A stretch of DNA of 64,000 nucleotides from positions 14,768 to 78,767 of the forward strand of contig JAAOYJ010000003.1 in NCBI GenBank assembly GCA_018221285.1. Direction: 5' to 3'. Of this stretch, positions 2,916-64,000 are shown in pieces. A program made the position numbers and the translations under genes. Within the stretch, counting starts at the first letter, position 1; each line of letters begins with the position of its first letter. The DNA comes from Candidatus Pacearchaeota archaeon. Lineage in GTDB: Archaea; Nanobdellota; Nanobdellia; Pacearchaeales; GW2011-AR1. The notes under the pieces were generated by a model. The model was not told the DNA's origin. It worked only from the letters and a program-made list of their open reading frames with translations, and did not search any database.

Positions 2916-3043
2916 TAGCCCCACCAGGATTCGAACCTGGGTCCCAGGCTTTCTTCTTTCTCTCCTGAAAAAGGAGGAAATGAAAAGTGCAAAGCACTTT
3001 ACTTTTCAAAGGCCTGTATACTTGACCACTGTACTATGGGGCT
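2916..3043 (-). tRNA. tRNA-Gln(UUG) with a 55-nt intron at canonical position 37/38 (intron 2951-3005)
   Basis: Minus strand AGCCCCATAGTACAGTGGTCAAGTATACAGGC-CT-TTG-A[intron]AGCCTGGGACCCAGGTTCGAATCCTGGTGGGGCTA; A1-U72 pair typical of archaeal tRNA-Gln; CCA not encoded. Confidence 0.93.
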
Positions 3044-45062: not shown

Positions 45063-45827
45063 ATGACTCTCCTACATGACATCTTCCAAAAGAAACAATC
45101 AAAACCCAAAAAAGATATTCCAAAACAAAAAATCATCGTCGACTATCGAGAGAAAAGCTGTTTAGTTCCATCAGAACTAGTCAGCCTCGGATTTGAAGTT
45201 GAATTTAAAGAACTAAAAGTTGGAGATTATATTGTCAAAGAAACTGCAATTGAAAGAAAAACTGTCTCCGATTTTATCTCATCCATGATAAACAAACGTC
45301 TTCTAAACCAACTTGAAGAACTTCAACAATATGAAAATCGATTATTAATCATCGAGGGAATTGCTGAACAAGATTTATACAATGATAACCAAAAAATGAT
45401 TTCGCGAGACTATCTAATGTCTGTGCCGAAGGCGCTGACGGGTGGGAGGGCACGGGCCCCGAGCGAAAATGGCAATGGTGTAAACGCAAATGCAATAAGA
45501 GGTTTTCTATTATCAATACTTCTCAAACACAAAGTCCCAATCATATTCACAAAAGATTACAAAGATACTGCAAAGTTTATCTCAATACTTTCAAAAAAAC
45601 AAGATAAAGAAGTTTCACTAAATGCGAAAAAGAAATCTCTAAATAAAAAAGAGCAACTCCAATTCATCATCGAAGGTTTTCCAGGAATCGGCCCAACAAC
45701 TGCAAAAAAACTTTTAGAAGAATTCAAATCAATCAAAAACATAACCAACGCCTCCGAAGAAGATTTAACAAAAGTTCTTGGAAAAAAAGCAGAGATAATC
45801 AAAAGGTTAGTTGAAGAGAAATACTAA
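45063..45827 (+). CDS. ERCC4/XPF nuclease with HhH (nuclease part of a split Hef), carrying an in-frame 72-bp repeat insertion
   Basis: VDYRE, GDY, ERKT..DF, FPGIG HhH. Confidence 0.92.
   Translation: MTLLHDIFQKKQSKPKKDIPKQKIIVDYREKSCLVPSELVSLGFEVEFKELKVGDYIVKETAIERKTVSDFISSMINKRLLNQLEELQQYENRLLIIEGIAEQDLYNDNQKMISRDYLMSVPKALTGGRARAPSENGNGVNANAIRGFLLSILLKHKVPIIFTKDYKDTAKFISILSKKQDKEVSLNAKKKSLNKKEQLQFIIEGFPGIGPTTAKKLLEEFKSIKNITNASEEDLTKVLGKKAEIIKRLVEEKY
45399..45470 (+). mobile_element. MITE/REP-like 72-bp element, intragenic in-frame copy (family B)
   Basis: 61/72 nt ungapped identity (manual count) to 55296-55367; ends atttcgc...gcgaaaat. Confidence 0.8.
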
Positions 45828-55292: not shown

Positions 55293-55369
55293 ACAATTTC
55301 GCGAGACTAACTATTGTCTGCGCCGAAGGCGCTGACGGGCGGGAGGGTAAGGGATTCGGGCGAAATTGT
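55293..55369 (+). mobile_element. MITE/REP-like element with perfect 10-bp terminal inverted repeats, intergenic copy (family B)
   Basis: acaatttcgc...gcgaaattgt; internal hairpins agac-N8-gtct and gcgcc-gaa-ggcgc. Confidence 0.8.
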
Positions 55370-55390: not shown

Positions 55391-55442
55391 TACATACATA
55401 GTAAGTAACGTTTATAAGGAGAATTACATAAATAGTAAGTAA
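55391..55442 (+). promoter_or_regulatory. Promoter with two 18-bp palindromic operator-like repeats flanking the TATA box
   Basis: tacatacatagtaagtaa (55391-55408) and tacataaatagtaagtaa (55425-55442), 17/18 identical; tttataag at 55411-55418. Confidence 0.65.
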
Positions 55443-58400
55443 TGGGAAGGACTCGATTAGCCAAAGCTACAGCCGTAGAACTATCAAGGATAATACATGA
55501 AGCAAAACAAAGGAAAGACGTTCTTGTTAGGTATTTGGAGAGATTGAACAAGCATCATTCTGAAGGGAAAATTTCTTATGATAGATATGTTGAGATACTC
55601 CACAAACATACAGATGGCAGAACCATTTCTGAATGGATTGAACACTATGAAGACTACATAAGAGACTTTGAAAAAAAATTAAGAAAAGAAAAGAAAACTA
55701 CCCTCATAAAACAATTAACATTAGGGTTATTTTTTATTTCTTTGATTTTTATTATTCTCAACTTAAACCTAGATATTACCCCTAAATTTGTGGGGTTCAC
55801 AATCCAAGAGCAAGAATTTTCACAAAACTTAGATTTAACCTTTGAAGAATCCGCCGAGTATGAATGGCAATTAGAAAACTTAGGGGAATTAACTTCAGTT
55901 AAATTATCAGGAATTATTGAAGGAGAAGGTAAAGTAAAAATTTACCTCGACGATTTACTAATTATTGATAGTTCAAAAATCAAAAAATCAAAGATAACTG
56001 GCGAAGTAATTAGTGATGATGAATCCAAACCAGTTGAATCATATTCAGAAGAAGTAAACGAGGCTCTTGAAGAAGATTCGAGTCCTTCCCAGGAGCCTCC
56101 ACCTTCTGAAACAAATGAAATTATTGAAGAAGATAGCACAGAAAATATTAATCAAACCGAAGAGGAAGAAGAAATTATTGGAACACCTTCACAAAATGAA
56201 TCATATTCAGAAACAGAAGAGGAGGTCATTGAAGAAGATTCGAGTCCTTCCCCAGATCAAGGTGACATCCTTGATCGCCCAAGCGATGAGCTTGGTGAAG
56301 AGGAGTCTCTACCTTCTGAAACCAAGAAAGAAAAAATAACAACAAGAACATTCAAAGATTCTTGCGAAGAAACTTGTGAATTAAACAACCTGAACAAAAC
56401 TTCATACACTCTAAAAATAGAAATCTCAAATGCAAAATTAAAAATCAGCGATATAAAATATACCATCCTTGGACAAATCCCTGCTGAAACCTCTGAAGAG
56501 AATATAACAGAACCAACCCCTAAAGAAAACGTCACAGAGATTCCTCTTCCTGAAAACGTCACAGAAAGAAACATAACTACCTCTAAAACCAATGTCTCCA
56601 CATTACAATACAAAGCAATAATCAACAAACCTACTAAATGGATTAAAACAATTAAGCGTAAGGAATCAGATCAACCCAACATCTCAATAGAACTTCCAAA
56701 AGAAGCTGAGAACATTTCAGTAAAAACTGGTGACGAAGTTCAACAAGCATTAGACGAACTCGAAGAATTCGATGAAACAATTGAACAAACTGACAGACAA
56801 AATTTTCTTTCAGGATCAATCACTGGAAATGTTGCTCTCGACATTAAACAAGAAAGGAGCATATTAACAAAACTATGGAACTGGCTAAAAAGCTTTACGA
56901 TCACAGGGAATGTTATTGGAGAGCAAGAATTGCAAAACGACATTACAGAAACTATTGACAAAAAAATAATTGATTTGGAAGAAATCATCAACCAAACTCA
57001 AACAACAGAGATCGCAGTCGAGTATTACACAGGGGGCCCAACAGCTATAGAGGAAAACATCAGCAACGGTAAAAGAGTTATTGTTTCAGGAGATGATGAA
57101 TTAAATTACACCGAGGTGCTAGCTTTCACAGAGATAGAAGAAAAATTTGAAGTGGGGCAAGAATCGAAAATTAAGGTTTATTGGAGAGAAGAAAACACAT
57201 ACATAAATTTCACAGCATATGATACCGACGACAACAACAAAATAGATTATGTAGAATGGATTGCTCCACATTTGAGCAACCAAACATTTGATATAATTAT
57301 TGAGATTATTAAAGCCGAGCATTTAGACAAAGACAAAGAATTTATCTCGGACATCTACAACGAAACATACCAATTAGATGATACTTGGAGTGAAGAAATT
57401 TCAAACAAACAGTATGTGAGAATAACTTTTGAGGTTCCACTAGACTCTTCAAGAGATATCACAATCTATCCAAGAATTACTAAAGGAAACCCAACAATAG
57501 AAGTTTATGAGGTTAATGGGACAGAACTAATCGCTGAATTCACAGATATCTTTTCAAATGAATACAATGAAGTTTTATTGACAAATCTAAATGGAACGCA
57601 AGATGTTTTTGATTTGAAAATTGTCGGAGGAAGTGTGGAGTTTGACCATATTGTTGATCCGGATGAATGGTCTGATACAGATTGGCCCTATCGAAAACAA
57701 ATAAATGTTTCAAACACTTATGGAGAAGATCTAATAGAATATCAAATAGAATTAATAATTGATACGGCAGCCCTTATTACTGCAGGAAAGCTGAATTCTA
57801 ATTGTAGTGATTTGAGATTCACTAATGCATCTGGAGGATTAATTTCCCATTATGTGGATGAAAATACTCGTATAGATTGTAATGAGAACGATACTCTAAT
57901 TTGGATACAAACAGACGTCTTAGTAAATAATGCCAACACGTCTTTTTACATGTATTACGGAAACTCTGGAGCGAGTTCGACTAGTAATGAGTTGGATGTT
58001 TTCAATTATACTACACCTACTCCTGTAATGGTGCCTGTAGGTACAAATAATGATGATGCAATAGAAGTAGTGAGTTATGCAGATGGAAACACAATTGAAA
58101 TGGGGGGATATTCTAATACACTTAGTGAAGGGGAAGTTGATACCGGTGTAGGTAGTCACTCTCAAAATACCTTATTAAATGTAACCCAACCCGTTGCAGC
58201 AATTTCTGATAGTACAGGAGATGCATTAGTGCCATTAAGCTTTGCTGGAACATTATTCTTACAGTATGGTGACAGAGCAGCAGGCACTACCACTTATGCC
58301 GCATATTCATTTGAAGATAATAACAAGGTTGCCGTACATACTGGGGGGTGGACTGAAGCAAGTAGTGTAATTGTGAACAAAGGTTCTGTTGGAACATTAA

Positions 58401-61400
58401 CAACTACTACTAGTGATGCCTTTATGATTAATTCAACTTATCCTGTAGTGATATTTAGACAAGAAGGAGGAAATGATAATATGGTATTTTATCCTGCTCA
58501 AACAGAATATTATGGCTGGGGAGGTAGGCGTATATATATGACAGCCTTAGAAGCTGATACTGGCATTACTTGTTATGACAGTCAAAACACCATGCCAGTA
58601 AGTATAAATATTGGTGCTGGTGGTCAGGGATCCTACACTAGTTGGGGTAGGGATAGTGCTGGAGAAGCGGCCTTCTGTAATAGTACTAAGATCTTTGGTG
58701 TTAACCAAGAAGCAGATGCAGATGGTAATGAGCAGACAGAATTCATAAATGAAAAAGAACTTGATAGAATCCACTTTTTACCTCAAGCTACAGGGACTAG
58801 TACAGATTTTTATGTATCTGTTATAGCTCCCACCCCAAGTACTAATTGTACTGTGACTCGTTCTGGAGCATTTGTTACAGATGCTGTTAGTGCAGCTTAT
58901 ACTTTTCCAAACCCTAACTTAATCTCGTTTACTTCTGGTTTGCAGGCAGGAGATAAAATAGATTGTAGTGCACCGGTTACAATAGCTTATGATGATGTTG
59001 ATGATGCTGGTGACGAGCATAATCTTTTCGGAATGAAAGCAAATAGGCGGTTTGTTTACCCAACACCGACTTACACAATTGCAGCAGAAGAAGAACCTCC
59101 AGCAGAAGACACAACCTACCCTCAATTCTCAAATTACTGGGACAACAACGCAACACTAGAAGAAAGTGGAACTGGTTTATTCAATGTAACAGTACTGAAT
59201 ACTAACGGAACTGTCTTGTTAGAAATTAACGGAACAAACATCACAGCAACAAATTATGCGGGAGACAATTATAATGCAAGCCATGCTTTTACAACTAACG
59301 ACACTTATCCTTACAAATGGCATTCATGGGGAAACGGTACAGATGAAAACTATAATATTTCTGTGACCAGAAGCTATACTGTTAATGGGACTGTCCCTGA
59401 CACAACTTATCCTTCAGTTACAATAATCTCTCCAACCGCTCAGAATTATGCGACAATATCAATAATATTCAATATAACAGCAACAGACGAAACTGGAATG
59501 GATACTTGTCTTTACTCCTTAGATGCAGGGGCAACCAATACAACAATGGGCAATTCATCAGCGACGTCATTCAATGCAACAAACTCCTCAATGGCTCAAG
59601 GCCTACATACAGTTAATTTCTATTGTAATGATACTTCAAATAATATAAACGACACAGAAAATGTGACTTTCCTTATTGATTCAATTTATCCATCATGGGA
59701 GAACAACAAAACAAATCTAACAACAACTACTACTCAAGGATCTTCAATTTATTTTAATATGACCTTAAACGAAACCAATCCAGCGAACTATACATTCAGC
59801 TGGTACAATGGAACAGCATGGGAGAACACAACAGGAAGCTACACTGATGGGGAGGAAGTTGAAGTGATTAAAACAATTAATATCAATGGGGGGCAGATTA
59901 ATTGGACTTGGTATTTCAATGATACTTCTGGAAATTCAAATCAAACAGATGTGTGGAGTATGACATTAGTGACTGTAGACACAACACCTCCTCAAATTCA
60001 ATTCGAAGATCCAACAAGAGCAGACGGAAACACAACAGCAGACACTTCAATTGAAATCAATGTCTCAATTACAGAATCTAATCTCGGCGAAGTAGTCTAC
60101 AATTGGAACGGAACAAACTTCACATTAATGAATAATAACTTAGTTCTCTTCATGAACTTTGATAATGTATCTGCTCTTGGAGAAAATGATACCTTAGTTG
60201 TTGATGCAAGCGCTTATGAAAACAATGGAATAGTAAACGGTGCTGTTGTAAACACAACTGGCAAATATAATGGCTGTTATTCTTTTAACGAAAACGATGC
60301 AATCAACGTAGGAAGTGATTCAAGTCTAGACATCACAAACGAAATCACAATTAGTGTCTGGATTAACTCTTTATCTCAAAATCAAGTAGCTGGAAATGTC
60401 AAAAGCTATGCAAAAATAGACAGCACTGACCTAGCCGGAGAGTTGGAGGCTTCAGATCATCTTGGTGTTGGTGTAGCAAATATTGGTGATTTGGATGATG
60501 ATGGAATAGTGGATATTGTTATTACAGCTAATCTAGATGATGATGGGGGCGACAAAAATGGGGCAGCATATATTGTATTTATGAATATAGATGGAACTGT
60601 AAAGGATTATCAAAAAATAAGTGAGACCTACGGAGGATTTACAGGAGATCTAGCAGGAGGTCGGGCTGGTTATGGTGTTGCAGGTATTGGAGATTTAGAC
60701 GAGGATGGTGTAGAAGATATTGCAGTTGGAGCTTTTGCAGATACTTCTCTTACAGGAGCTGTTTGGGTGCTATTTCTAAATACAAATGGAACGGTGAAAT
60801 CTTATAATAAAATTGATGATGCAAGTGTAGGTGGAGAGTTGGACGTAGGAGATATATTTGGTGGAGGTGTCATATATCTTGGAGATTTGGATGGGGATGG
60901 TGTGGGAGATATTGCTGTTGGAACTTTAAAAGATCATGATGGAGGCTCTGATAGAGGGGCTGTTTATATACTTTTCATGGATACGGATGGAACTGTAAAA
61001 GATTATCAAAAAATAAGTGATACCCGAGGAAATTTTACAGGAGGCTTAACTGACTTAGATGAGTTTGGTAGTGGGGGAAATAGTATTGGAGACTTGAATA
61101 ATGATGGTGTAGAAGATATCGCAATCGGGGCTAGGAAAGCTGACGATGGAGGAGCTAGTGCAGGAGAGGTTTGGGTACTATTTATGGATACAGACGGAAC
61201 TGTCAAGTCTGAAGCTAAAATTAATGATACAAGTGTGGGAGGGGGGTTGGACGCAGGTGATCAATTTGGTAATAGAGTAGGAGGTATTGGAGATTTGGAT
61301 GGGGATGGTATAGAAGATATTATTGTTGGGGCTAGTTTCGGTGATGATGTGAAAGATGATGCTGGAGAGATTTGGGTATTATTTCTGGATACAGACGGAA

Positions 61401-63682
61401 GTGTGAAATCATTTTCTAAGATAAATGATACTAGTATGGGGGGAGGACTAGATACAGGGGGTTTGTTTGGAACATCAGTCGCAAATATAGGAGATTTAGA
61501 TGGGGATGGGGTAACAGATTTTATTGCTGGAGCCATGAAAGATGATACAGGATTCACTCAAGCGGGAGCCGCTTGGATAGTTTTTTTGGAGGATGGTTTC
61601 GCATCCATCCTAAATAAACAAAATGCGTATGAAATTCGAGCAAACGAAACTGCTGTAAAAGGAATGACTAATGGAAGTTCTATAATCGCCCAAATTAATG
61701 CAGGGTGGAACCACGTTGTGCTCACGTCCAATAGTACAAACAAATCACTCTATGTTAACGGGGTTTTATCTTCTACAGGACCAAGTGGTGCAATCGCTTC
61801 AAACACATACGACCTTCTTATCGGAAATGACTACAACGGAAGCATAGATGAATTAATGATTTACAACACTTCGCTAAACTCCGCCGAAGCCTATCAATTA
61901 TATATTTCCAATCTAAAAAAATACGACACTGACAAATGGACTTTATATGTTAACCAATCTAAGAACGCGACAACTGGTTTAGAAAATGGGAAATATACTT
62001 ATCAGACATTTGTAGCAGATACTTCAAGTAATTGGAATCAAACAGAAGAGAGGACAGTTACAATAGGTGATGGAGCAGCAGGAGACACAGCCCCACAAAT
62101 AACTTCTGTATTCAACGACTCAATGACTGATGTATCAAGCGGACCAAATGAAGGACCTTCTCCAACTTATGTAATTATTAATTTCACGGCTTATGATGCA
62201 AACGGAGCCTCAGACTTAAATGACAGCACAGCGAGAATAAACTTTACAAGAACAGGGGAAACAACAAGAGAAAACTTAAGTTGTTCGAGATACGCAACAG
62301 GAGGAAATTATGCAAACTATACTTGTAATGTAACAATGTGGTGGTTCGACGGTGCAGGGATTTGGAACATCACAGCCCACATTAAAGACAACCAAAGCAA
62401 CTCAGCCACAAATGCGTCCCAAACTTTCTCTGTTGGTTCAAGGACAGCATTTGTCATGGGCCCGTCTTCCTTAACTTGGGCTGGACTAAGCCCTGGAGCA
62501 ACAAACCAAACTTCAAACAATGATCCTCTTACTCTAAACAATACAGGAAATGATATTATCACTGCTTCCAATATAGAAATTAATGCTACAAATCTCCTCG
62601 GTGAAGAAAACAGCAGTTATGGTTTATGGGCTGGGAATTTTTCAGTTAGTTATACAGACGCTGGCGCTTGTGCAGGAACCGCCATGAGCTCTTCAGAATA
62701 CACAAACATAACTGCTGCAAATCTAACAATAGGAAACTACACAGTCGGGGACGGAACAGCACAGGAAGAATTATATTTTTGTATAAAGGTTATCGGAAGC
62801 GAACTTACAGACCAAGCTTACTCAACATCTGGACAAGGAGCATGGACAATAAGAATCTTACTCGTTGCTTTAACCACAAGAAGAAGAAAGAAAACTAAAC
62901 ACAAAAACCAAACAGAGCTTTTCATCCCTTCAACAATCTTCACAAAAGAACTTGGAGCCTTGGAAGCAATCAGCAAATATATGAAAGAAAATTTGGAAAT
63001 GAGTTATCATGAAATTGGTGAATTGTTGGAAAGGGATGAAAGAACTATCTGGACATCATATAACAAAGCTGTTGAGAAACAAAAAGCAAAATTAAAGGTA
63101 AAGGATACAGAGTTCTTCCTACCAATCTCAATCTTTAGTGATAAACTAACAATCCTCGAGGCTGTTATTGTTTATCTAAAACAAAAAGGTTTAAGGTATG
63201 CTGAGATTGCCGAACTAGTTGATAGAGACCAAAGAAATGTTTGGGCAACTTATTCTAAGGCAAAGACAAAACTAGAAGAAAAAGAGATTACAAAAGTAGT
63301 TGAAATAAAATTAGAGATAAAGATTCCTCAAACAATCTTCTCCAAACAACTTGGAGCATTGGAAGCGATTAGTAAATATATGAAGGAAAACTTGGAAATG
63401 AGTTATCATGAAATTGGTGAATTACTAAAAAGAGATGAAAGAACAATCTGGACTTCATATAACAAAGCTATTGAAAAACAAAAAGCAAAGATAAAAATTA
63501 AGGATGTTGAGGTTTTCCTTCCAATCTCAATCTTCAACAAAGAGCTAACAGTTCTAGAAGCAGTTGTGGTTTATCTAAAACAAGCAGGATTGAAATACAG
63601 TAAAATAGCTGAGCTAGTTGATAGAGATCAGAGAAATGTTTGGGCAACTTATTCAAAAGCTAAAGAAAAGGCAATTACATAA
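55442..63682 (+). CDS. Giant surface protein (2746 aa): N-terminal TM, DUF2341, Ig-like domains, LamG split by FG-GAP repeats, C-terminal tandem HTH domains
   Basis: W.YRK.I...DLRFT...YMYYGN (DUF2341), GDLDGDG..D..VGA (FG-GAP), GSIDELMIYNTSL (LamG), four LEA...Y.K....Y.EI.EL..RD.R..W..Y.KA units. Confidence 0.88.
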   Translation: MGRTRLAKATAVELSRIIHEAKQRKDVLVRYLERLNKHHSEGKISYDRYVEILHKHTDGRTISEWIEHYEDYIRDFEKKLRKEKKTTLIKQLTLGLFFISLIFIILNLNLDITPKFVGFTIQEQEFSQNLDLTFEESAEYEWQLENLGELTSVKLSGIIEGEGKVKIYLDDLLIIDSSKIKKSKITGEVISDDESKPVESYSEEVNEALEEDSSPSQEPPPSETNEIIEEDSTENINQTEEEEEIIGTPSQNESYSETEEEVIEEDSSPSPDQGDILDRPSDELGEEESLPSETKKEKITTRTFKDSCEETCELNNLNKTSYTLKIEISNAKLKISDIKYTILGQIPAETSEENITEPTPKENVTEIPLPENVTERNITTSKTNVSTLQYKAIINKPTKWIKTIKRKESDQPNISIELPKEAENISVKTGDEVQQALDELEEFDETIEQTDRQNFLSGSITGNVALDIKQERSILTKLWNWLKSFTITGNVIGEQELQNDITETIDKKIIDLEEIINQTQTTEIAVEYYTGGPTAIEENISNGKRVIVSGDDELNYTEVLAFTEIEEKFEVGQESKIKVYWREENTYINFTAYDTDDNNKIDYVEWIAPHLSNQTFDIIIEIIKAEHLDKDKEFISDIYNETYQLDDTWSEEISNKQYVRITFEVPLDSSRDITIYPRITKGNPTIEVYEVNGTELIAEFTDIFSNEYNEVLLTNLNGTQDVFDLKIVGGSVEFDHIVDPDEWSDTDWPYRKQINVSNTYGEDLIEYQIELIIDTAALITAGKLNSNCSDLRFTNASGGLISHYVDENTRIDCNENDTLIWIQTDVLVNNANTSFYMYYGNSGASSTSNELDVFNYTTPTPVMVPVGTNNDDAIEVVSYADGNTIEMGGYSNTLSEGEVDTGVGSHSQNTLLNVTQPVAAISDSTGDALVPLSFAGTLFLQYGDRAAGTTTYAAYSFEDNNKVAVHTGGWTEASSVIVNKGSVGTLTTTTSDAFMINSTYPVVIFRQEGGNDNMVFYPAQTEYYGWGGRRIYMTALEADTGITCYDSQNTMPVSINIGAGGQGSYTSWGRDSAGEAAFCNSTKIFGVNQEADADGNEQTEFINEKELDRIHFLPQATGTSTDFYVSVIAPTPSTNCTVTRSGAFVTDAVSAAYTFPNPNLISFTSGLQAGDKIDCSAPVTIAYDDVDDAGDEHNLFGMKANRRFVYPTPTYTIAAEEEPPAEDTTYPQFSNYWDNNATLEESGTGLFNVTVLNTNGTVLLEINGTNITATNYAGDNYNASHAFTTNDTYPYKWHSWGNGTDENYNISVTRSYTVNGTVPDTTYPSVTIISPTAQNYATISIIFNITATDETGMDTCLYSLDAGATNTTMGNSSATSFNATNSSMAQGLHTVNFYCNDTSNNINDTENVTFLIDSIYPSWENNKTNLTTTTTQGSSIYFNMTLNETNPANYTFSWYNGTAWENTTGSYTDGEEVEVIKTININGGQINWTWYFNDTSGNSNQTDVWSMTLVTVDTTPPQIQFEDPTRADGNTTADTSIEINVSITESNLGEVVYNWNGTNFTLMNNNLVLFMNFDNVSALGENDTLVVDASAYENNGIVNGAVVNTTGKYNGCYSFNENDAINVGSDSSLDITNEITISVWINSLSQNQVAGNVKSYAKIDSTDLAGELEASDHLGVGVANIGDLDDDGIVDIVITANLDDDGGDKNGAAYIVFMNIDGTVKDYQKISETYGGFTGDLAGGRAGYGVAGIGDLDEDGVEDIAVGAFADTSLTGAVWVLFLNTNGTVKSYNKIDDASVGGELDVGDIFGGGVIYLGDLDGDGVGDIAVGTLKDHDGGSDRGAVYILFMDTDGTVKDYQKISDTRGNFTGGLTDLDEFGSGGNSIGDLNNDGVEDIAIGARKADDGGASAGEVWVLFMDTDGTVKSEAKINDTSVGGGLDAGDQFGNRVGGIGDLDGDGIEDIIVGASFGDDVKDDAGEIWVLFLDTDGSVKSFSKINDTSMGGGLDTGGLFGTSVANIGDLDGDGVTDFIAGAMKDDTGFTQAGAAWIVFLEDGFASILNKQNAYEIRANETAVKGMTNGSSIIAQINAGWNHVVLTSNSTNKSLYVNGVLSSTGPSGAIASNTYDLLIGNDYNGSIDELMIYNTSLNSAEAYQLYISNLKKYDTDKWTLYVNQSKNATTGLENGKYTYQTFVADTSSNWNQTEERTVTIGDGAAGDTAPQITSVFNDSMTDVSSGPNEGPSPTYVIINFTAYDANGASDLNDSTARINFTRTGETTRENLSCSRYATGGNYANYTCNVTMWWFDGAGIWNITAHIKDNQSNSATNASQTFSVGSRTAFVMGPSSLTWAGLSPGATNQTSNNDPLTLNNTGNDIITASNIEINATNLLGEENSSYGLWAGNFSVSYTDAGACAGTAMSSSEYTNITAANLTIGNYTVGDGTAQEELYFCIKVIGSELTDQAYSTSGQGAWTIRILLVALTTRRRKKTKHKNQTELFIPSTIFTKELGALEAISKYMKENLEMSYHEIGELLERDERTIWTSYNKAVEKQKAKLKVKDTEFFLPISIFSDKLTILEAVIVYLKQKGLRYAEIAELVDRDQRNVWATYSKAKTKLEEKEITKVVEIKLEIKIPQTIFSKQLGALEAISKYMKENLEMSYHEIGELLKRDERTIWTSYNKAIEKQKAKIKIKDVEVFLPISIFNKELTVLEAVVVYLKQAGLKYSKIAELVDRDQRNVWATYSKAKEKAIT
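62096..62194 (+). repeat. Domain-encoding segment duplicated in the downstream gene (63892-63990)
   Basis: 86/99 nt identical (manual count); second copy is cut by the window end. Confidence 0.85.
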
Positions 63683-63720
63683 AAATTTATATATCACAAT
63701 CTATTATTTACACTATTAAA

Positions 63721-64000
63721 ATGAGAGAAGATATTAATAAAAAAAGGCGAATGATCTTGATCCTATTCATTTCAATATTTCTTTTATTATCTATTTCTAC
63801 TATTTCCGCAGGATGGTTAAAAGACATTAAAAATAAAATAACTGGTGAGGCAACTCAAACAGTGGGGATAAACATTACAGTAGGGGGTCCTCAAATAACT
63901 GCAGTATTCAACGACTCAATCACAGATGTATCAAGCGGACCAAACGAAGCTCCTTCCCAAACTGATGTAATTATAAATTTCACAGCTTACACTGCTGCAG
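63721..64000 (+). CDS. Secreted protein sharing a domain with the giant protein, 3'-truncated by the window edge
   Basis: MREDINKKRRMILILFISIFLLLSISTISAGWLKDIKNKITGEATQTVGINITVGGPQITAVFNDSITDVSSGPNE... Confidence 0.8.
   Translation, partial: MREDINKKRRMILILFISIFLLLSISTISAGWLKDIKNKITGEATQTVGINITVGGPQITAVFNDSITDVSSGPNEAPSQTDVIINFTAYTAA

Follow-up and report, generated by a model that had tools for sequence, protein, structure and literature searches.

ECF sigma/anti-sigma operons place a small regulator gene ahead of a gene for a membrane protein, and their promoter is the regulator's own target. Monomers of the MarA/Rob type carry two non-identical HTH motifs that occupy adjacent major grooves of an asymmetric site of ~17–20 bp, the orientation of which matters. 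Archaea use TBP/TFB, and those of the DPANN group depend on contact with host cells; to our knowledge, almost nothing is known about how DPANN archaea sense contact or control their huge surface proteins. A census of transmembrane transcription regulators (TTRs) has been published, among which ToxR, TcpP and CadC are bacterial (Demey et al. 2023; PMC10269533); its main text mentions neither DPANN, Woesearchaeota and Nanoarchaeota nor sigma. In Sulfolobus, ArnR and ArnR1 are transmembrane transcription regulators (PMC6396743). The archaeal repressor EnfR is a soluble homodimer whose pseudo-palindromic site of 36 bp overlaps the TATA region (PMC10570040).

Here we describe a promoter in a 64,000-nt stretch of DNA from a Candidatus Pacearchaeota archaeon, hereafter the window, in which two copies of an operator-like site bracket the TATA box of a gene encoding a 2746-aa surface protein with a C-terminal HTH tail (Table 1). 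The window belongs to an assembly (G000) of 863,066 bp in 43 contigs, with a GC content of 34.6% and a completeness of 81.8%. No RNA run is listed as containing the stretch; the one sequencing run that does contain it is probably of DNA, and its contigs break at the repeats.

Table 1. Features of the giant-gene locus, in window coordinates.
Feature	Position	Strand	Remarks
Distal operator site O1 (putative), TACATACATAGTAAGTA	55391..55407	+	0 mismatches to the family consensus TACAYAYATARTAAGTA
TATA box TTTATAAG	55411..55418	+	Flanked by O1 and O2
Proximal operator site O2 (putative), TACATAAATAGTAAGTA	55425..55441	+	1 mismatch to the consensus TACAYAYATARTAAGTA
Predicted transcription start	55440..55442	+	TATA start plus 29-31 nt, from the genome-wide rule
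2746-aa surface protein gene	55442..63682	+	N-domain, TM1, large ectodomain, short hydrophobic anchor, HTH tail
Conserved N-terminal domain, cytoplasmic (aa 1-88), helical hairpin running into TM1	55442..55705	+	Homologue search, AF2
TM1 (aa 92-108)	55715..55765	+	Kyte-Doolittle maximum 2.58, 17-residue window
Putative second membrane anchor AWTIRILLVALTT (aa 2467-2479), then RRRKK	62840..62878	+	Kyte-Doolittle <1.5, 17-residue window
HTH module 1, unit A (RTIW helix) + unit B (RNVW helix)	62900..63274	+	Profile match aa 2487-2611
HTH module 2, units A' + B' (78% identity with module 1)	63260..63676	+	aa 2607-2745
First of three downstream genes (322, 211 and 555 aa; extending past the window)	63721..64000 (start)	+	Syntenic with the G065 operon

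The two sites are direct repeats, 55391–55408 (TACATACATAGTAAGTAA) and 55425–55442 (TACATAAATAGTAAGTAA), identical at 17 of 18 positions with a start-to-start spacing of 34, which agrees in coordinates and letters with a preliminary description made from the window alone. The promoter reads O1, ACG, TTTATAAG, GAGAAT, O2 and the ATG at 55442. The TATA box begins 3 nt past the end of O1, so that O1 overlaps the BRE position as that description had proposed, and O2 starts 14 nt after the start of the TATA box and occupies the 17 nt up to the ATG. Across the assembly, the distance of TATA-like hexamers from the ATG has a sharp maximum at -29 (104 of 565 crude genes) and a smaller one at -27 (41), and Shine-Dalgarno-like motifs are comparatively few; the peak at -29 indicates that leaderless mRNAs probably dominate in this genome. 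From the position of its TATA box, the giant-gene mRNA is predicted to be leaderless or to carry a leader of 1-2 nt. With transcripts probably leaderless, O2 would lie at about -17 to -1, and the 18-mer 55425–55442 does extend over the likely start, as placed by the -29 rule, into the ATG, again as proposed. In position, O1 and O2 thus resemble an archaeal operator overlapping the core promoter, with the transcription start taken from the -29 rule.

The preliminary description had called the site an imperfect palindrome, TACWTAC-N3-GTAWGTA. The pattern itself (TACWTACNNNGTAWGTA) holds, with 0 mismatches in the first site and 1 in the second, but the symmetry is weaker than this notation implies. 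The W of both arms conceals an A/A mismatch, which leaves the arms complementary at only 6 of 7 positions; the site is better described as a pseudo-palindrome, and this asymmetry of the arms is shared by the family. At up to 2 mismatches, TACWTACNNNGTAWGTA matched 4 times in the window, compared with 0.42 expected, and 4 matches were reached in none of 100 shuffles. Rfam gave no match at gathering score in or near the promoter, the sole weak row being STnc490 (E 0.54), and a scan for sigma-70-type promoters and terminators, irrelevant for an archaeon, returned 0 sites.

Just upstream of O1 lies a GC-rich element of ~75 nt (55296-55369) with terminal inverted repeats ATTTCGC...GCGAAAT. Two more copies (45399-45450 in the window and G000:C9:17943-18015) share ~92% identity and have unrelated flanks, and the element is absent from the orthologous promoter of a genome of the same genus (G001). 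It had no Rfam match and its folding was not distinctive (z-scores -1.07 and -0.82). Elsewhere in the window, at 2916-3043 on the - strand, the Rfam tRNA model matched across 128 nt with 54.5 bits where ARAGORN made no call; this is probably an intron-containing archaeal tRNA.

Within the assembly, the site pair is unique. At up to 2 mismatches, the first 18-mer has only these two sites in all 863,066 bp on both strands. A relaxed skeleton of the site matched without mismatch at two places, O1 and O2, as against 19 scattered singletons with one mismatch. Local pairs of 18-mers of any sequence (at least 17 of 18 identical, offset 18-60) are themselves infrequent, numbering only 19 genome-wide, and the offsets of 13 of these 19 are multiples of 3.

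We searched for relatives of the giant gene with the N-terminal 153 aa of its product as query and found homologues in 14 of 61 related genomes, including the window's own. Thirteen loci were examined; two weak matches outside the family were omitted, as were two places for which no locus was then available and which were fetched later. At the 12 loci other than our own, all found by protein alone, the 17-mer TACAYAYATARTAAGTA with up to 3 mismatches was present in at least one copy at 10 and in at least two copies at 9, and every copy lay upstream of the gene and in the same orientation. Absence of the motif upstream of orthologs, which the preliminary description had named, together with a lack of binding by the tail, as the mark of a chance duplication, was thus not what we observed. 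At one locus (L008), a shortened variant abuts the ATG, and another (L009) has a degenerate site. A further gene (G020:C14) was provisionally taken as a family member without the motif, an assignment dropped once additional upstream sequence revealed a pair of shortened variants around the TATA box, followed by a leader of ~120 nt. The N-domains of the homologues share 22-64% identity, mostly 22-42%, and the site, which keeps a fixed position relative to the TATA box, is far better conserved than the proteins. Retention of the site between proteins only 22-64% identical indicates that the DNA site is under selection of its own.

Searches that started from the DNA led back to the same genes. 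Among the 61 related genomes, 27 of 30 motif matches at up to 1 mismatch were clustered before family genes, in 11 genomes; the other 3 were singletons elsewhere, and a reversed-pattern control gave 4 singletons. We then scanned 185,579 species genomes, one per species, with a two-site DNA pattern, which returned 55 loci. Eight, all in bacterial records, had no family gene and are compatible with chance matches; of the 47 other loci, 45 had a family gene downstream and 2 could not be assigned. Thirty-six site-pair loci preceded a gene with a type-1 N-domain, 29 of them at a profile E<=1e-30. The remaining 7, assigned by inspection or from weak matches, comprise 4 arrays with the gene further downstream, 1 locus cut by a contig end, 1 match at E 6e-5 and 1 gene that resembles the N-domain type and follows a leader of 262 nt. 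Site pairs also preceded 1 type-2 N-terminus, 3 type-3 genes and 5 genes for small soluble proteins (176-189 aa) that consist of the A-B HTH pair alone. For these loci (L059-L113), which were found through the motif, the conservation of the site and the 34-64 range of the matched pairs are partly a product of construction. A more distant family (G050, G055) consists of giants with another N-terminus and the same tail, and has a variant of the site between the TATA box and a Shine-Dalgarno leader.

Two of the loci carry unexpected taxonomic labels. One labelled Patescibacteria (L063) has a typical family promoter and N-domain gene, near-identical to those of a Nanoarchaeota single-cell record (L088), and one labelled Methanosarcinales (L084) has two sites. 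In either case the contig looks like DPANN DNA that ended up in the bin of another genome.

The geometry of the promoter is tightly constrained across the family. In 33 of 50 family promoters, a TTTATAAG-like TATA box precedes the proximal site by exactly 14 nt, start to start, and allowing 14-16 nt brings the number to 42. The end of the proximal site lies 0 or -1 nt from the ATG in 37 of these promoters, and it is invariably the copy over -17 to -1 that is conserved best. Sites occur in arrays of up to 8 co-oriented copies. Among 75 site-to-site spacings, 21 fall at 32-35, 9 at 41-45 and 28 at 51-55, which corresponds to a periodicity of 10-10.25 bp (Rayleigh R 0.64); this larger set is partly motif-found, which limits the range of spacings and does not create the periodicity. 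The 15 spacings from protein-found loci gave a Rayleigh R of 0.58 with a nominal p of ~0.007. Both the same-face spacing and the long arrays suggest that proteins bind the sites cooperatively. Some family members depart from the leaderless arrangement: in L079 and L080 a leader of 200-260 nt, rich in GC and with internal repeats, separates the proximal site from the family gene, and the ~120-nt leader of G020:C14 (L046 440-560) contains an inverted repeat, so that long structured 5' leaders exist in the family.

The product of the giant gene combines a helical N-domain with a very large outer part and an HTH tail. The AF2 model of the N-domain (pLDDT 83.8) comprises helices 2-40, 46-54 and 62-110, and neither Pfam nor NCBIfam holds a family for it. 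The ectodomain contains DUF2341, FG-GAP and LamG domains together with 95 N-X-S/T sequons. Because the second membrane anchor is weakly hydrophobic, the topology, including tethering of the tail, is a prediction. The tail consists of four sigma-region-4-like HTH units in the order A-B-A'-B'; module 1 matches Pfam Sigma70_r4_2 with 45.5 bits (cut-off 25.7). Between relatives, the tail units are 42-61% identical and hence more conserved than the N-domain. The AF2 model of the module (pLDDT 91.4, pTM 0.84) shows two copies of a strand plus three helices. In a structure search, single HTH units matched EnfR as well as domains of the LuxR type or of sigma region 4; the HTH pair as a whole had no counterpart among solved chains, and the module profile had no match among PDB sequences at E<=0.01.

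For the tail, only region-4-type matches were found, not the region 2 together with region 4 that characterizes a sigma-70 sigma factor, and TIGR02937 scored 40 bits, below its cut-off of 42.9, covering only the last 48 profile positions. The NCBIfam scores for Tfx (16.6, cut-off 60.25) and EnfR (20.1, cut-off 260) place the tail outside the Tfx/EnfR family. With a Sigma70_r4_2 match and the clear TM1 in one polypeptide, the protein has the composition of a TTR, namely a DNA-binding domain plus at least one transmembrane region. A profile search of the six-frame translation of the assembly, which is 81.8% complete, found the module at E<=10 only in this tail.

The HTH pair also occurs as a separate protein. 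It is present in all forms of motif-bearing genes, either as a fused cytoplasmic tail, as in the window, or as a small soluble protein encoded by the first gene of the same operon, which makes the pair, rather than the N-domain or the ectodomain, the shared feature of these genes. Five complete relatives encode the HTH pair and the N-domain in one ORF, and 2 of 3 type-3 giants end in the pair, the third being cut by a contig end. In genome G065, six sites precede a gene for a 180-aa soluble HTH-pair protein that overlaps a gene for a 1080-aa surface protein; the latter has the N-domain, parts of the ectodomain of the window's protein and a C-terminal anchor and is devoid of the HTH tail. After the 1080-aa gene come homologues of the three genes that lie downstream of the giant gene. 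This synteny and the split HTH gene indicate that the giant gene belongs to the same operon, except that here regulator and surface protein form one polypeptide. The 322-aa downstream gene starts 38 nt past the stop of the giant gene, with TTTATA at 63686, 35 nt before its ATG, and may have its own promoter, despite a gene order conserved with G065.

The module is widespread. Its profile retrieved 2192 clusters at 50% identity, 850 of them at E<=1e-30. Among the best 150 of the 2192, protein lengths run from 144 to 5919 aa, and in those of at least 450 aa the best-matching stretch always lies within ~260 residues of the C-terminus. Relatives of the soluble form among the matches listed were all named 'hypothetical protein' at their source.

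We collected 80 metagenome loci through the soluble protein alone; after removal of 7 duplicates and 11 loci with too little upstream DNA, 62 remained. Within 220 nt upstream, 47 of the 62 had at least one forward site, 35 at least two and 12 exactly one; at the threshold used, 15 had no site, and reverse-strand sites occurred at only 3. This collection revealed covariation between single residues of the HTH units and single bases of the site. Counted over few clades (about one large division between Asn and Thr and three small lineages, and thus few independent covariation events), base 4 was A in 60 of 63 sites where unit B reads R-N-(I/V/M)-W and T in 78 of 84 where it reads R-T-(I/V)-W, like unit A; the arms are asymmetric (TACATA...TAAGTA) in the former and symmetric (TACTTA...TAAGTA) in the latter. 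With Thr in unit A, base 14 was A or G in 142 of 145 sites, and with Asn, Gly or Val there, found in three lineages, it was T in 4 of 4, giving a right arm of the TACAT type. In one of these three lineages (L197) the two residues are swapped between the units, and the arms are swapped too. The protein in the window obeys the same rule, having RTIW in unit A, RNVW in unit B and sites of the form TACATA...TAAGTA.

The covariation argues for direct binding, with the 5' arm predicted to be contacted by unit B and the 3' arm by unit A, and fits a selection of T at half-site position 4 by Thr. The clear signal comes from the soluble forms; among the giants (G050, G055, G012, G020:C14), the link between helix and motif is suggestive but mixed. 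In G055, the only module found has RNIS in unit B and the family promoter motif is near-canonical; module and promoter are on different contigs and so may not belong to one gene.

Taken together, we consider it probable that O1 and O2 are operators bound by the HTH modules of the giant protein itself, resulting in negative autoregulation. Since the assembly encodes the HTH pair only in the tail, autoregulation by the tail is the best reading, and the position of the sites suggests repression. The preliminary description had proposed that the HTH tail may regulate its own gene, and the co-occurrence of site and HTH pair in fused and split forms, the residue-base covariation and the status of the tail as sole module in the assembly all support this proposal at the level of sequence; the receptor model to which it was tied is a hypothesis. 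Each 17-bp pseudo-palindrome would be the target of a single tandem HTH module (sigma-region-4/Tfx type), with unit B reading the 5' arm TACATA and unit A the 3' arm TAAGTA (TACTTA on the other strand), and the two tail modules of the 2746-aa protein would occupy O1 and O2 of its own promoter. Binding at O2, at about -17 to -1, would block recruitment of TFB and RNA polymerase. O1, adjoining the BRE and TATA box, could add cooperativity, which the location of the sites on the same DNA face would allow, or activation at low occupancy. The tail might act while anchored in the membrane, in the manner of ToxR and CadC, or once it has been released.

That the pair is a neutral local duplication without function has practically no probability left, as nothing beyond the closeness of the two copies speaks for it and the comparative data refute it, the motif having been retained throughout a group of order rank in which the coding sequence has diverged to 22-45% identity. 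Chance local duplication was ruled out on the grounds that the motif is kept upstream of homologues and has only 2 sites in the assembly. The motif might instead be a family-specific core-promoter element, initiator or proximal, serving the basal machinery, with the upstream copies as remnants of promoter duplication. The rigid distance of the proximal copy from the TATA box and the start would suit such an element, as would a motif that is AT-rich and partly TATA-like. We nevertheless judge this very unlikely, given that the motif is absent from other promoters of the assembly, forms co-oriented arrays of up to 8 copies with a spacing periodicity of ~10 bp, and has one base per arm that changes together with one HTH residue, which an element for a basal factor would not do.

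Real operators could also be bound by another factor, either a soluble paralogue missing from the assembly or an unrelated regulator, while the tail does something else, for example sequestration at the membrane. Soluble HTH-pair proteins with the same motif do head the same operon in other genomes, the assembly is 81.8% complete, so that a soluble paralogue could be unassembled, and the membrane anchor ahead of the tail is weak. Against these points, no second module was detected in the assembly even at a profile E<=10, the recognition helices of the tail obey the residue-base rule of the soluble proteins, and the identity of the tail units (42-61%) exceeds that of the N-domain (22-64%, mostly 22-42%), which is what one would expect of units that read an unchanging site; we therefore hold binding by another factor to be unlikely. 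The sign of regulation is a separate matter. The module may be an activator acting in positive autoregulation, as at ECF sigma promoters, with O1 as the activating site, a reading otherwise compatible with autoregulation by the tail. The HTH units have the sigma-region-4 fold, the split form resembles a sigma/anti-sigma operon in which the regulator gene is followed by that of a membrane protein with a cytoplasmic N-domain, O1 is the better consensus match in the window, and a position upstream of the TATA box would suit an activating site just as well. The best-conserved copy, however, always lies over -17 to -1, where occupancy usually blocks formation of the pre-initiation complex in archaea (PMC10570040), and we regard activation as rather unlikely.

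Beyond negative autoregulation by the tail, a wider reading, in which giant DPANN adhesin-like proteins are single-polypeptide receptors wired to their own promoter through a code where Thr or Asn in each recognition helix selects T or A in the half-site, is a tentative possibility. Host contact at the ectodomain would then change the access of the tail to DNA, through release or through sequestration by the N-domain. If true, archaea would have an equivalent of signalling by ECF sigma/anti-sigma pairs or of the Notch type, with fused and split forms across >2000 protein clusters.

We found no published description of this HTH family or of its operator motif in the literature. The locus offers a concrete, testable regulatory circuit, consisting of an operator, a promoter geometry, a DNA-binding module (2192 clusters) and a predicted recognition rule, and the site could serve as a marker motif for locating regulated surface-protein operons in metagenomes. 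If the proposed circuit is correct, membrane-tethered transcription factors would extend to giant archaeal surface proteins.

The closest structural match of a single HTH unit is EnfR (PDB 8hno; Z 9.9, rmsd 0.8 Å, 50 residues, 30% identity). EnfR has one HTH per chain and a 36-bp site, whereas the module described here has two different HTH units per chain and a predicted site of 17 bp. In this respect it resembles MarA/Rob, in which a single chain with two non-identical HTH units also meets an asymmetric site, here of 17 bp, although the fold is of the sigma-r4 type rather than the AraC type. Likeness to ECF operons lies in the sigma-region-4 HTH fold and in the split form, where the regulator gene overlaps the gene for a protein with the N-domain, one TM segment and an outside sensor; unlike an ECF sigma, the tail and its module are without sigma region 2. 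As in transmembrane regulators, a DNA-binding domain, membrane segments and an extracytoplasmic part are joined in one polypeptide, with action on the promoter predicted from the cytoplasmic face. Unlike ToxR, TcpP, CadC and ArnR, the protein in the window carries two C-terminal tandem pairs of sigma-r4-like HTH units behind a glycoprotein-like ectodomain of ~2350 aa, and the predicted target of this 2746-aa protein is its own promoter.
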